Origin: Candidatus Saccharimonadota bacterium
GTDB taxonomy: Bacteria > Patescibacteriota > Gracilibacteria > UBA4473
Assembly: GCA_963677105.1 (NCBI GenBank)
Contig: OY781871.1
Coordinates: 90,001-122,000 of the forward strand
Direction of reading: 5' to 3'
DNA length: 32,000 nucleotides
Shown: positions 3,257 to 7,540 of the stretch, in pieces
Position numbering within the stretch: position 1 is the first letter of the stretch
Layout: the number at the start of each line of letters is the position of its first letter
Notes under the pieces: model-generated
Database searches by the model: none
What the model was told of the DNA's origin: nothing
Seen by the model: only the letters and a program-made list of their open reading frames with translations
Program-made: the position numbers and the translations under genes

Positions 3257-3832
3257 ATGAAAACCTTGCGCAACACAGAAACAGAAAAAAATTTATTAAA
3301 ATCTTTCGCTGGCGAATCTCAAGCACGAATGAGATACGATTATTTTGCAAAACAAGCAAAAAAAGAAGGGCTCGAACAAATTTCTGCTATTTTTGCTGAA
3401 ACGGCACTCAATGAAAAAGAACACGCAAAAAGATTTTTCAAATTTTTAGAAGGAGGACACACAAAAATAACAGCAACGTATCCAGCTGGAAAAATTGGAA
3501 CAACGCTCGAAAACCTAAAAGCGTCCGCTGACGGAGAAAATGAAGAATGGAGTGATCTATATCCGGAATTCGCAAAAACAGCACGAGAAGAAGGTTTTAT
3601 AGACATTGCAACTACTTTCACAATGATTGCGATTGCAGAAAAAGCGCATGAAGCAAGATTCCGAAAGTTATATGCAAATCTTGAAGCTGGAAATGTTTTT
3701 AAACGAGAAGGAAAAATTGTTTGGAAATGTTTAAATTGCGGATATTTACACGAAGGAGATTCTGCACCAGAAAAATGTCCTGCTTGTTTGCATCCACAAT
3801 CTTATTTTCAAATCAAAGAAAATAATTATTAA
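3257..3832 (+). CDS. rbr: rubrerythrin
   Basis: Ferritin-like di-iron helices (ESQARMRY.., EKEHAKRF.., GENEEW.., AEKAHEARF) plus a C-terminal rubredoxin-type CxxC..CPxC (WKCLNCGY...KCPACLHP). The start is moved to ATG 3257 (MKTLRNTETEKNL); the track's upstream extension is hydrophobic noise. Confidence 0.9.
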   Translation: MKTLRNTETEKNLLKSFAGESQARMRYDYFAKQAKKEGLEQISAIFAETALNEKEHAKRFFKFLEGGHTKITATYPAGKIGTTLENLKASADGENEEWSDLYPEFAKTAREEGFIDIATTFTMIAIAEKAHEARFRKLYANLEAGNVFKREGKIVWKCLNCGYLHEGDSAPEKCPACLHPQSYFQIKENNY

Positions 3833-3838
3833 AAAGCT

Positions 3839-4435
3839 ATGAACAATCTGCAAGTGCTCCCTCGTTTGAAGAATCAATACTTCACCCTTCGACATGGAGA
3901 AAGTCAGGCGAATATACAAAAAATTGTTTTAAGCGATCCACGAAACGGAGTTCCTAATTTTGGGCTCACTGAAAAAGGAAAACAACAAGTCAGAGATTCT
4001 GTTTCTACCAATAAATATTTGGATAAAAATATAATAATTTATTCTTCAGACTTTCTCAGAGCTAAAGAAACTGCCGAAATTGCAAAAAAAATATTACACA
4101 CTGACAAGATTCATTTTACTGAACTTTTACGAGAACGATTTTTTGGTGATTTTGAAAAAACAAGTAATGAAAATTATGAACTCGTTTGGAAACATGATAA
4201 AGAAGACCCGAATCATGAATTTAAAAATGTAGAAAGTGTTGCGAGTGTTTTAGCGAGAACAACTGGACTCATTCTTGATCTCGAAAAAAAGTTTCACAAT
4301 AAGAAAATATTACTCGTTTCTCATGGAGATTCGTTACAAATATTACAAACAGGATTTTTAAAAACGTGTTCCTCCACGCACCGTGAAATTCAACATTTAC
4401 ATACTGCAGAAATAAGAGAATTATTACTTGAATAA
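3839..4435 (+). CDS. histidine phosphatase family protein (phosphoglycerate-mutase-like)
   Basis: RHGES catalytic motif near the N-terminus (FTLRHGESQAN) and a second His motif (LVSHGDSLQIL). Confidence 0.75.
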   Translation: MNNLQVLPRLKNQYFTLRHGESQANIQKIVLSDPRNGVPNFGLTEKGKQQVRDSVSTNKYLDKNIIIYSSDFLRAKETAEIAKKILHTDKIHFTELLRERFFGDFEKTSNENYELVWKHDKEDPNHEFKNVESVASVLARTTGLILDLEKKFHNKKILLVSHGDSLQILQTGFLKTCSSTHREIQHLHTAEIRELLLE

Positions 4436-4443
4436 TTTTTTAC

Positions 4444-4482
4444 ATAAAAAAATGCTCCCAACCGAAGTCGGGAGCTTTATTT
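4444..4482. terminator. bidirectional rho-independent terminator (stronger on the minus strand)
   Basis: The minus strand reads GCUCCCGAC-UUCG-GUUGGGAGC followed by AUUUUUUU: a 9-bp stem with one G.U and a UUCG tetraloop. The plus strand forms the same stem with one A.C mismatch, followed by TTTATTT. It lies between convergent genes. Confidence 0.75.
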
Positions 4483-4514
4483 CAGGACACCTCATTAGTG
4501 TGAGCTGAGGGGCT

Positions 4515-4709
4515 CTAACAAGGCATCTCTTGCATAATACACATTCGATTTTTTTGGTATCCATGGCCACATTTTCCACAACCATCACAGCTTAAAAAAC
4601 AATCTTTCTTTTTACCTTGTGGATTAAGATTTCCTTTGCTTAACCGATTCTTGTGTCCTTGTTCTTTCGCTAATGCTAAAATTTCTTCGTTTGTCATTTC
4701 TCGTGACAT
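4515..4709 (-). CDS. small cysteine-rich protein (64 aa, six Cys in the C-terminal 28 residues)
   Basis: ATG is preceded by the best SD in the window (AAAAAAAAGGAAGGAAAAA-ATG) and the ORF is followed by a strong terminator. Sequence: MSREMTNEEILALAKEQGHKNRLSKGNLNPQGKKKD-CFLSCDGCGKCGHGYQKNRMCIMQEMPC, Cys pattern CX3CX2CX2C..CX6C. No family recognised. Confidence 0.5.
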   Translation of the reverse strand: MSREMTNEEILALAKEQGHKNRLSKGNLNPQGKKKDCFLSCDGCGKCGHGYQKNRMCIMQEMPC

Positions 4710-4975
4710 TTTTTCCTTCCTTTTTTTTGTTCTAGTCTATGTCTTGTTACACAGACCGAAACCAAGAAACAACACTATTTCTTAATCTCGATCTGCGCTT
4801 TTAAAACCCTTCTCAGGGCCTGAAATTTCTCACTTCTTATGTTTTACGAACTCGCTTTCGTTCCAGACGGAAGTCAGCCAATATCAGTAACTTTTTTATA
4901 AAAAATGAGGAGAATAAAGCCCTGTGATCCGAAATGTCAAAGAAATACCTTCTGTCTAATAATTTTCTGTCGAGA
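4710..4975 (-). other. long structured 5' leader (or independent small RNA) upstream of the Cys-rich ORF
   Basis: No credible ORF on the minus strand. Minus-strand hairpins:
- 4805-4820: GGCCCU-GAGA-AGGGUU, GNRA-capped
- 4764-4783: AAGAAA..UUUCUU
- 4735-4756: GUCUGUG..CAUAGAC
- 4846-4861: ACGAA..UUCGU
I could not match any riboswitch or ncRNA class. Confidence 0.35.
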
Positions 4976-4977
4976 AA

Positions 4978-5005
4978 CTTATACTGATTTTATAAATTTT
5001 GTCAA
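4978..5005 (-). promoter_or_regulatory. candidate sigma70-type promoter for the leader and Cys-rich ORF
   Basis: The minus strand reads TTGACA (5005-5000), 16-nt spacer, TATAAG (4983-4978). It lies just downstream of the stop of the 81-aa ORF. Confidence 0.45.
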
Positions 5006-5021
5006 CAGTATAAAAAATATA

Positions 5022-5267
5022 TCATTTTTTATTATCTCCAATTATATTATCAACAATTACCATTGGATCCTGATGTTCTATTTCTCCTATTCCTTGAATG
5101 ATTTGTTCAGAAGTTGCATGAGGATTTTTGTTTAAAACCTCTCTCATCTCCTCAGCAAATCTCTCTACAATCGCAATAATTATTGGTGTATTATGCTGTT
5201 CTTTTTTGGGGAGAAGCATTTTTATAGCCTTCGATTGTGCCTCACTCTGTTCTAAAAATGTGTTCAT
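5022..5267 (-). CDS. hypothetical protein (81 aa)
   Basis: ORF 5022..5297 begins at TTG. I prefer ATG 5267 (MNTFLEQSEAQ..), which lies downstream of GAGAGGAG. Acidic, helical, no family recognised. Confidence 0.5.
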   Translation of the reverse strand: MNTFLEQSEAQSKAIKMLLPKKEQHNTPIIIAIVERFAEEMREVLNKNPHATSEQIIQGIGEIEHQDPMVIVDNIIGDNKK

Positions 5268-5310
5268 TTCAAATATTCTACTCCTCTCGAAAAACAAAAA
5301 GCAAGTCTTT

Positions 5311-6435
5311 CTATGACTTTATTAAAAATTCATTTAACTGCTCTCTAAAATGCGCTTCATCAAAAGACATTCCTCTTTTTACTATTTCCTTTTTATCTAT
5401 CGTTTTTTCTATTTTCACAAAATGATCAATCGCTTGTTGTAGCGATTCTCTTGATTGCTCAGCAAAAGAACTTCCCCACTTGCCGACAGATTCTGTCGCA
5501 CCACCTTTGTTGTAGTAAATGACTGGAGTTCCTGCTAACATTGCCTCAATCGGAGTAAGTCCAAAATCCTCTTCTGCTGGAAATAAAAATGCACGCGCAC
5601 CCGCATATAATTCTGCTAATTCTTCATCTGGAACGAATCCAAGAAAATCAATATTCTTTGTGTTTTTTGCGAGTTCTTTACAGCGTTCCCATTCTGGTCC
5701 ACGTCCTGCTAGTTTCAATTTCAATTTATTTTTCGCAAATGTTTCAACAAGTAAATCAAATTTTTTGTAGGGAATAAATCGTCCAACCGCAAGAAAATAA
5801 TCTCGTTTTTTACTTTCTTTTCCAGCTGTAACAAATTTTTGTGTTTCTACTCCAGGATATATTGTTGTCGATTTTTTTCCGTAAAATTGTTGAATACGTT
5901 TTCCCACAAAATCAGAATTTGAAATCCAATGGTCAACATTTTTTGCGGCGCGTTGATCTATTCTCGTAAGCCAATTTAATAACACTGGTAAAATAATTCG
6001 TACTGGTTTTATCCATACAGGAAGCGGAAATGTTTTTATATATTCATCGCGTGCATGATAGAGAAACCGAACTGGCGTATGACAATAGCAAACATGTATT
6101 TGTTCTTTTCTTGTTTTTTTTACACACTTAGAAAACCCCGAACTGCTCGAGGTAATAATCAAATCAAATTCAGAAAGATTCAGTTTTTTAAATGCGTTTG
6201 GAAAAAATGGCAATAAAAACTGATGTTTATTTCGAATAAAAGCTGGAAATTTTTGTAACCAAGTTGTCTTCACTGTTTTTGTATGAAGTTCTGGAAATTG
6301 CGACTTATTATAAACACTCGTGAAAATAATTGCCTCAGGAAACAGTTTCGCTAAAGAAAAAATAACACGCTCTGCCCCACCACGACTCGTAAGCCAATCA
6401 GCAACAATCGCTACTTTCTTTCCTTCTAATTTCAT
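5311..6435 (-). CDS. glycosyltransferase, GT4 / Glycos_transf_1 family
   Basis: N-terminus MKLEGKKVAIVADWLTSRGGAERV is typical of this family, and C-terminal FLFPAEEDFGLTPIEAMLAGTPVI is the GT-B donor-binding region. ATG 6435 is preferred over the track's GTG 6477. Confidence 0.85.
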   Translation of the reverse strand: MKLEGKKVAIVADWLTSRGGAERVIFSLAKLFPEAIIFTSVYNKSQFPELHTKTVKTTWLQKFPAFIRNKHQFLLPFFPNAFKKLNLSEFDLIITSSSSGFSKCVKKTRKEQIHVCYCHTPVRFLYHARDEYIKTFPLPVWIKPVRIILPVLLNWLTRIDQRAAKNVDHWISNSDFVGKRIQQFYGKKSTTIYPGVETQKFVTAGKESKKRDYFLAVGRFIPYKKFDLLVETFAKNKLKLKLAGRGPEWERCKELAKNTKNIDFLGFVPDEELAELYAGARAFLFPAEEDFGLTPIEAMLAGTPVIYYNKGGATESVGKWGSSFAEQSRESLQQAIDHFVKIEKTIDKKEIVKRGMSFDEAHFREQLNEFLIKS

Positions 6436-6481
6436 CTTCGGAATTCTGGCATTTTTTGGAAAAACTGGCAAACTCACAGGG

Positions 6482-7540
6482 ATGAAGAAACTATTGATAA
6501 GCTTATTTCTTGTCTTTCCCTCTCTAACATTTGCGCAATCAAATGTAAGTGAAAATGAATTTCACCGAGGAATTGTGGTCGAAGCACGCGATTCTGTGGC
6601 AGAAGAAGTTTTTGGCGAAAAAAATCTTGCACAAGAATTACGCGTAAAACTCGACGACGGACGAGTCGTTGCTATTCCTGCTGGACAATATCAAATCGTT
6701 GTTGAGTCTCAATTACTGAGTGTGGGAGATAAAGTAATTTTAGCAAGTTCTCACGGAAAAAATTTTCGAATTCTCGAACTTAATCGCACACGAAACCTCT
6801 GGATTATTATTGGAATATTCTTAGTTCTCGTTGTATTAATTGCTGGAAAACAGGGATTTACCGGAATTATTGGATTATTAATTTCTCTCATCGCTATTGC
6901 TGGAATTTTAATACCCCAAGTACTTGCTGGAAAAAATCCTCTCTTCGTAAGCCTCATTGTCTGTGCTGCAATTACTGGAATTTCTATTTGGGTTTCTCAT
7001 GGATGGAAAGCGCGCACACATCTTGCCGTTACTTCCACTTTTTTAACATTACTCATCGCCTTTGGGCTCGCTTGGATATCAATAAATATCACCAGTCTCC
7101 ATGGACTCGGAAGTGAAAATTCGTATTTTTTACAAGTAGCAATTCCTGGTGTAAATTTGTCAGGATTACTTCTTGGAGCAATTTTGCTCGGAACAGTTGG
7201 AATTTTAGACGATGTAACGACTACACAATGTGCAACCATTGATGAACTTTCTCAGGTGAATCAAGGACTTTCTTGGAAAAAATTATTTTCACATGGAATG
7301 TCAGTAGGACGTGAACATGTTGCCTCAATGATCAATACTTTAGCGCTTGCATACGTTGCTGCAGCACTTCCAATGTTTCTTCTTATTGCTCTCGACACAG
7401 AACGCCCTTGGTGGGTTGTATTTAATTCAGAATTTTTCGCAGAAGAAATTGTCCGAACGATGCTTGGATCTGGAGCACTTGTTCTTGCTGTACCAATTGC
7501 AACTCTTTTCTCAGCATTATTTTTTGCTCGTAAAAAATGA
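6482..7540 (+). CDS. polytopic membrane protein, YibE/F-like
   Basis: Start moved to ATG 6482 (MKKLLISLFLVFPSLTFAQS signal/anchor). An N-terminal soluble segment is followed by about 7 TM helices and a GILDDVTTTQ motif reminiscent of YibE/F. The family call is from memory. Confidence 0.5.
   Translation: MKKLLISLFLVFPSLTFAQSNVSENEFHRGIVVEARDSVAEEVFGEKNLAQELRVKLDDGRVVAIPAGQYQIVVESQLLSVGDKVILASSHGKNFRILELNRTRNLWIIIGIFLVLVVLIAGKQGFTGIIGLLISLIAIAGILIPQVLAGKNPLFVSLIVCAAITGISIWVSHGWKARTHLAVTSTFLTLLIAFGLAWISINITSLHGLGSENSYFLQVAIPGVNLSGLLLGAILLGTVGILDDVTTTQCATIDELSQVNQGLSWKKLFSHGMSVGREHVASMINTLALAYVAAALPMFLLIALDTERPWWVVFNSEFFAEEIVRTMLGSGALVLAVPIATLFSALFFARKK

Follow-up and report, generated by a model that had tools for sequence, protein, structure and literature searches.

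Long 5' leaders that occlude a start codon are known from the autoregulatory leaders of ribosomal-protein mRNAs and from the fold-back 5' untranslated regions (UTRs) of type I toxin mRNAs such as hok and AapA1, and among small Cys-rich proteins the single-cluster [4Fe-4S] ferredoxins are recognized by the motif CX2CX2C ... CP. Here we analysed a Cys-rich open reading frame (ORF) of 64 aa, hereafter P0001, that stands behind a long folded leader in a 32,000-nt stretch of contig OY781871.1 (the window). The source genome (G000) is closed, 962 kb (0.96 Mb) long with 36% GC and a completeness score of 100%, and belongs to Candidatus Peribacteria, ultra-small candidate-phyla-radiation (CPR) bacteria with the standard genetic code. 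P0001 is probably a genuine gene and a species-restricted orphan, and we judged the chances to be about even that it encodes a small, lineage-specific protein that binds Zn or Fe-S and is produced from an autonomous, leader-controlled module. The protein would be small and basic, with a C-terminal Cys cluster (a CxxCxxC core plus distal Cys residues) that binds Zn or Fe-S, and it would be the local, species-specific cargo of a "structured leader plus mini-gene" module of Candidatus Peribacteria.

The transcription unit and its leader RNA

P0001 consists of a charged, helical N-terminal half, a basic linker and a six-Cys C-terminal tail. The six Cys residues (37, 41, 44, 47, 57 and 64), all encoded by TGT, lie within the C-terminal 28 residues in the pattern CX3CX2CX2C-X9-CX6C, and both the 64-aa ORF and this pattern were present exactly as an earlier reading of the stretch by a model, made without database searches (the sequence-only reading), had given them. 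A second in-frame ATG occurs at codon 5 (4695-4697), and a start there would yield a protein of 60 aa.

The transcription unit would be ~525 nt long and would comprise, in this order, its own promoter, a 5' leader of ~260 nt made up of a conserved hairpin RNA and a second, strand-specific hairpin, a purine tract, the ORF and an intrinsic terminator (Table 1). The putative promoter directly follows the stop codon of an upstream 81/91-aa ORF; it was not listed by a consensus promoter scan, since its TATAAG box ends in G, and a TTGACA-N17 arrangement with a -10-like box was found at the equivalent place in the other two copies of the leader in G000 and in the copies of two related genomes (G027 and G035). 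The terminator, in which a UUCG loop caps a 9-bp stem (4454-4475) and a U7 tract follows, starts 39 nt past the stop codon of P0001, which is a typical distance given that 69 of the 116 intergenic terminators (59%) lie at most 60 nt from the stop codon of a gene. It is placed between convergent genes and is common to P0001 and a histidine-phosphatase gene ending at 4435. By stem energy it ranked 28th among the 317 candidates of the genome and 4th among those of the window, so that the UUCG-capped terminator noted earlier is present and good but is not the strongest. No terminator was found between the leader and the ORF. With a TTGACA-N16-TATAAG promoter and a terminator of its own, P0001 thus forms the stand-alone unit that had been proposed from the sequence.

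When the intergenic region was compared with G000 by blastn, the leader element was found to recur twice more at 70-73% identity. The element is ~150 nt long and combines an invariant single-stranded 5' UCUUU motif with a long interrupted hairpin that is common to the three G000 copies and shows compensatory changes among them. From these three copies we built two covariance models, R1 and R2, with which the window copy, itself a seed sequence, scored 160 and 135 bits, respectively. Full-length matches were obtained in 11 of the 43 genomes of the family, representing 7 of 25 genera, with independent matches in 10 genomes besides G000, and the element matched neither of two genomes of the same genus nor, with R1, any of 24 genomes from other families of the class. 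Across the 11 sense copies, 90% of the pair cells held standard pairs and compensatory changes occurred in 23 of the 31 pairs, counts that lean toward the structure as the alignment was fitted to the covariance model.

At the gathering threshold of Rfam only a tRNA-His was found in the window, 2.4 kb from the leader module, and the best sub-threshold match in 4380-5100 reached at most 23 bits against cut-offs of 39-54 bits. A scan of viral contigs with the leader pattern was empty, and 16 pattern matches outside Peribacteria were discarded as they failed the covariance model. Judged by its recurrence and covariation, the leader is a real RNA family that is uncatalogued in Rfam, to which the window copy belongs by its full-length R1 and R2 matches and its compensatory pairs.

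The second hairpin of the P0001 leader forms on the minus strand only, because 7 of its pairs are G-U, and most other copies carry a long hairpin of different sequence in its place. In the P0001 copy, the 5' motif of the leader can also pair across the start codon with -14.0 kcal/mol, and pairing as good as this was found in only 0.9% of 784 native start regions. On the favoured reading the leader would control translation.

The other two leader modules of G000 are located immediately upstream of tRNA-Ser(GGA) (L039:1005-1094, plus strand) and tRNA-Leu(CAA) (L040:38-122, minus strand). A tandem array of ACAAA/TACAAAG-type heptamers (L039:~100-215; G000 ~758700-758815) immediately precedes the promoter of the 759-kb copy and reads ...NYKVQ... 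in spurious frames.

On the upstream side of the unit, a GT4 glycosyltransferase gene is encoded on the same strand 600 nt from P0001. Between this gene and the P0001 promoter lies an acidic ORF of 81 aa (91 aa from a TTG start; 5022-5297, minus strand). It has coding-like codons (score 0.227), it was unmatched in 400 genomes of the class and is hence also an orphan, and its only PHROG match was a weak one to a family of unknown function (phrog_17498, E = 8e-4). Without P0001 and this ORF, the gap would measure 875 nt and be the 11th largest of 611 gaps. Another intergenic small ORF of G000, 65 aa long with six Cys and a codon score of 0.283 (C1:411435-411632, plus strand), has no sequence kinship to P0001.

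Table 1. Features of the P0001 unit (positions in the window unless a G000 contig is given)
Feature	Position	Strand	Description and basis
Putative promoter	4978-5005	minus	TTGACA (5000-5005), 16-nt spacer, TATAAG (4978-4983); read from the sequence
Conserved structured RNA element of the 5' leader	4796-4949	minus	blastn repeat and covariance models R1 and R2
Second leader hairpin	4749-4798	minus	23 bp including 7 G-U pairs, 4-nt loop; -30.5 kcal/mol
Purine tract AAGGAAGG	4715-4722	minus	Shine-Dalgarno-like; 5 nt upstream of the first ATG
P0001 ORF, 64 aa	4515-4709	minus	ATG to TAG; sequence and translation
Intrinsic terminator	4446-4475	minus	GCUCCCGAC-UUCG-GUUGGGAGC then AU7
Other leader copy	C1:758855-759005	plus	In a large gap beside a tRNA gene
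Other leader copy	C1:888306-888446	minus	In a large gap beside a tRNA gene

Start signals and cargo genes of the module

The purine tract upstream of P0001 had been taken from the sequence as a Shine-Dalgarno (SD) motif driving high expression. In G000, the 3' tail of the 16S rRNA reads GGAAUACCGCCAUU (G000:C1:594160-594200, minus strand), with ACCGCC in place of ACCUCC, and CCGCC was found in the 16S tails of all five family genomes checked (G000 and four others), which fits the genome-wide missing enrichment of SD motifs. SD-like pentamers were located upstream of 4.7% of the G000 ORFs of at least 100 aa and were not enriched over background, so the remark in the sequence-only reading that most genes lack an SD holds for the entire genome. 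Throughout the genome, GGAGG, AGGAG and AAGGA preceded starts no more often than they preceded random ATGs, and G was depleted at positions -5 to -15 of native starts. Loss of CCUCC in Candidatus Peribacter is already known from the literature, with Candidatus Peribacter riflensis among the SD-scarce organisms that lack it (PMC10783764), and loss of the anti-SD has been described in other CPR groups (PMC9297842).

Against a start-context matrix derived from 558 native ATG starts, the first ATG of P0001 fell at the 15th percentile of native genes and the codon-5 ATG at the 50th. P0001 does stand out for its purine tract, but with a CCGCC tail and a 15th-percentile start the tract does not amount to a strong signal for translation, and the best-looking SD of the window is no evidence for strong, SD-driven expression in a lineage without the CCUCC anti-SD. 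A canonical SD-led gene was rejected as a description of P0001, the tract having no canonical partner in the 16S tail of the organism itself, and going by that tail AAGGAAGG cannot serve as a classical ribosome-binding site in this bacterium.

The order of elements in the recurring module was a TTGACA-type promoter, the element with UCUUU, mostly a variable hairpin, an A/U-rich spacer and a small ORF, which in every leader copy begins 20-110 nt past the element. An SD-like purine pentamer (AAGGA, AGGAG, GAGGA or GGGAG) was found within 20 nt of the start in 13 of 17 leader-associated ORFs compared with 4.7% of native G000 genes, a comparison in which the copies are related, the start codons were chosen by us and the background is that of a single genome. 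Allowing for G-U pairs, the leader's invariant UCUUU is complementary to AAGGA or AAAGA.

Several of the cargo ORFs are zinc-ribbon or rubredoxin-like, and the G035 cargo matched the rubredoxin-like domain of rubrerythrin (Pfam RUBY_RBDX) with 26.9 bits at a cut-off of 26.5. Between the cargo ORFs of G027 and G035, 38 aligned codons contained 12 synonymous and 17 non-synonymous differences, third-position changes dominated and all four Cys were retained, a substitution pattern that marks this pair as protein-coding. We propose, tentatively and as a possibility clearly short of an even chance, that the hairpin leader, the SD-like tract and the small Cys-rich or zinc-ribbon ORF form a lineage-wide regulatory module, in which the tract and UCUUU would serve as an RNA switch or as a specialised signal for initiation and would govern fast-turnover small metal-binding proteins, with P0001 as the newest cargo.

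In the genus g2, the module was located upstream of a conserved HxGH cytidylyltransferase-like gene (G027:C63:3057-3967, and the loci of G003, G035 and G288). This slot holds a single module or two in tandem, and their small zinc-ribbon cargo varies by species, which points to a fixed position with rapid cargo turnover.

Extra basic, Cys-rich frames were also seen in the other two modules of G000. One is a very basic 66-aa frame with 5 Cys (L039:699-899, plus strand; codon score -0.12) that ends 18 nt before a strong terminator, and the other a very basic 38-aa frame with 4 Cys (L040:246-362, minus strand; codon score -0.20). Both are situated beyond the first cargo ORF or overlap it and may be chance frames, and with their negative codon scores we do not claim them as genes.

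Coding status and competing explanations

We searched for relatives of P0001. At E <= 10, Pfam gave only DUF6587 at 14 bits and NCBIfam only a noise match to BA3454, likewise at 14 bits, with TIGR03973 and the other precursor models unmatched; searches of PHROGs, PADLOC and the PDB sequences were empty or returned noise, in keeping with the earlier statement that no family could be recognised. A word search of 5.8 billion proteins found P0001 itself as the sole match, and an exhaustive HMMER search over 1.84 billion representatives yielded five matches, all artefacts from long repetitive proteins. When 60 relatives and 400 genomes of the class were searched in six frames, the match counts were at chance level and the matches inspected were out-of-frame noise. 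Nothing emerged from genome, viral and metagenome contigs scanned by pattern and tblastn, tblastn detected no paralogue in G000, and neither of two same-genus genomes contained a homologue. The sequence-only reading had looked to homologues for conservation of the Cys pattern; formally none conserves it, since P0001 has no homologues at all, and for the same reason translation itself stays unproven.

The evidence that P0001 is a gene therefore comes from the frame and its surroundings. Its codon log-likelihood of 0.174 corresponds to the 96th percentile of 1797 out-of-frame, and hence spurious, small ORFs of similar length and lies inside the range of the genome's own small ribosomal-protein genes, with 0.31 for the N-terminal half and scores of -0.22 to -0.95 for the other five frames at the locus. 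At least six Cys within 28 residues occurred in 1.6% of the out-of-frame ORFs of 50-80 aa, so the Cys cluster taken alone is not beyond chance; at least four Cys in 28 residues together with a codon score of at least 0.17 occurred in none of the 1797, and the combination of clustered Cys and coding-like codon usage is more than chance.

Folded as RNA, the ORF body is unstructured (z = +0.82), by which a structured RNA in the ORF region itself was rejected, and it is flanked by strongly folded sequences in the leader (z = -4.2), the second hairpin (z = -6.8) and the terminator (z = -3.7). We consider it fairly likely that P0001 is translated.

Several observations weigh against a leader-controlled, metal-binding protein. 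Without any homologue, P0001 has no conservation of its own and no support from the ratio of non-synonymous to synonymous rates (dN/dS), and its codon score reached only the 16th percentile of real-gene windows, with a value of about 0 for the Cys-rich half. The region is not syntenic even inside the genus, where G002 keeps the GT4 gene at 76% nucleotide identity and then continues with unrelated genes. The cargo ORFs are heterogeneous and mostly mutually unrelated, and some contain no Cys. The Cys spacing of P0001 fits neither a two-knuckle zinc ribbon nor the CX2CX2CX3CP motif, and no Pfam metal-binding domain was found. Pairing of the 5' motif with the start codon was not significant in the other two G000 copies, and since it is significant for the P0001 copy alone, it is not claimed as a conserved mechanism of the family.

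Single-sequence AlphaFold2 gave a best model with a pLDDT of 71.9, predicting a helix at 7-16 and four strands; the remaining four of the five models were poor (pLDDT 44-57), and a Foldseek search against the PDB together with a shape search of the ESM Atlas found only generic alpha-plus-three-strand look-alikes. Recognition of P0001 by the ESM language model was in the range of shuffled sequences, and a feature search stayed below the recognition threshold. These predictions add little to the case for P0001.

The main rival, which we rate as rather unlikely, is that the transcript is non-coding or purely regulatory, in which case the hairpin would be a small RNA and the 64-codon frame a fortuitous one that gives no functional protein. 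It agrees with the absence of homologues, with cargo ORFs that are mutually unrelated and in some cases dubious, with the equal Cys richness of 1.6% of spurious ORFs and with the low language-model recognition, and by our estimate ~0.4 frames of 73 open codons would be expected in a 586-nt gap of this composition, which makes such a frame not especially improbable. It does not explain why the codons of P0001, above all those of the N-terminal half, are coding-like in a combination with clustered Cys that was never seen in spurious frames, and it sits poorly with an unstructured ORF body between strongly structured flanks and with a leader and an ORF that are not separated by a terminator. In homologous modules of the genus g2, moreover, the ORFs show substitutions in a clearly protein-coding pattern. 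A different explanation, improbable in our judgement but compatible with a leader-controlled metal-binding protein, concerns where the gene came from: P0001 and the 81-aa acidic ORF would be recently acquired phage or bacterial DNA and AAGGAAGG a leftover SD from an SD-using donor. Both ORFs are orphans, the slot downstream of GT4 holds different genes in G002 of the same genus, SD-like tracts are otherwise rare in the genome and the other two leader copies adjoin tRNA genes, all of which would suit an acquisition. The GC content and codon usage are native-like, however, and no flanking repeats, mobility genes or compositional shift were found around 3800-6600. Viral contigs were unmatched by the protein or the RNA pattern and neither PHROGs nor PADLOC gave a convincing match, while the leader family is confined to this bacterial family, with copies that have diverged in place to 70-73% identity. 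A recent foreign origin is possible and poorly supported.

The sequence-only reading had likened P0001 to precursors of ribosomally synthesized and post-translationally modified peptides (RiPPs). Its N-terminal half would then be the leader and its Cys part the core of a SCIFF/ranthipeptide, a disulfide-stapled bacteriocin or a glycocin. A charged helical N-terminus in front of six Cys in 28 residues suits such a precursor in its general layout, and a GT4 glycosyltransferase is encoded 600 nt upstream on the same strand, but no precursor-family hidden Markov model (HMM) matched even at E <= 10 and the sequence contains neither a signal peptide nor a double-glycine (GG, GA or GS) motif. The sole radical-SAM enzymes of the closed genome are MiaB, NrdG, Elp3 and an RlmN/Cfr-like protein (four PF04055 matches), all of them housekeeping. 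SPASM (PF13186) had no match anywhere in it and was detected in 8 of 14 control genomes, and LanC (PF05147), YcaO (PF02624) and C39 (PF03412) each had none in G000 and were likewise detected in control genomes. The lack of a nearby maturase that had been remarked on earlier thus extends to the whole genome, and the proposed likeness to RiPPs found no support in the precursor models or in the maturase and exporter searches.

A glycocin was rejected in particular as no dedicated glycosyltransferase co-occurs with P0001: GT4 orthologues of 66-76% nucleotide identity are kept in four relatives (G002, G003, G006 and G012), all without P0001, and the enzyme is hence not a dedicated partner. Since a complete genome lacks the needed enzymes, the RiPP reading can be closed; we hold it to be very improbable and refuted for practical purposes. 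The Zn- or Fe-S-binding peptide, which the sequence-only reading had offered as an alternative, is now the favoured though unproven one.

Taken alone, P0001 is yet another orphan microprotein from an uncultivated, ultra-small bacterium, with a function that is not assignable by homology; the ORF itself is of modest interest, and the observation made from the sequence was real, its interpretation being partly right and partly wrong. The part worth following is a family of leaders with SD-like tracts in a lineage where the anti-SD is lost and native genes avoid such tracts, and the recurrence of the leader RNA before small, fast-evolving and often zinc-ribbon genes. If the module is regulatory, it would offer a handle on translation control in SD-less CPR bacteria and on the roles of their many small Cys-rich orphan proteins.

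Relation to known systems

Among described peptides, the SCIFF (TIGR03973) and other ranthipeptide precursors resemble P0001 in having six Cys in a short C-terminal stretch and a hydrophilic N-terminal part. They differ from it in Cys spacing, their HMM does not match it and no radical-SAM/SPASM maturase is adjacent to it or present in its genome.

The resemblance to single-cluster ferredoxins lies in the CDGCGKC core (CxxCGxC), the distal Cys, the C-terminal Pro-Cys and an anaerobic host with rubrerythrin and NrdG, by which Fe-S binding stays possible. The order of spacings, however, is reversed (CX3CX2CX2C in P0001 versus CX2CX2CX3C), and a tail of 28 residues is not long enough to form the ferredoxin fold. 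A Fer4 ferredoxin was accordingly rejected, as only the CX2CX2C part of CX2CX2CX3CP is present and Fer4 did not match.

Small zinc-ribbon and rubredoxin microproteins (RUBY_RBDX, DZR and Zn_ribbon; HVO_2753-like) differ from P0001 in their two CxxC knuckles, in place of which it has one CX3CX2CX2C block and two distal Cys. P0001 itself does not resemble the other cargo proteins in sequence, and with no two CxxC knuckles ~10-20 residues apart and no Pfam zinc-ribbon match it was not assigned to a zinc ribbon or rubredoxin-like domain. These microproteins nevertheless share with it a length of 50-70 aa, a basic composition and CxxC-spaced Cys, and they are of the same kind as the cargo in sister modules such as that of G035.

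As for the leader, it differs from those of ribosomal-protein and toxin mRNAs in having no Rfam match and in a start pairing that is not kept in its other copies. Compared with hok and AapA1 in particular, the encoded protein is hydrophilic and basic and no membrane toxin, and no antisense RNA or promoter for one was identified. What the P0001 unit has in common with the start-occluding leaders is its architecture, in which a long, strongly folded 5' UTR precedes a very small ORF and the 5' end of the transcript can pair with the start region.

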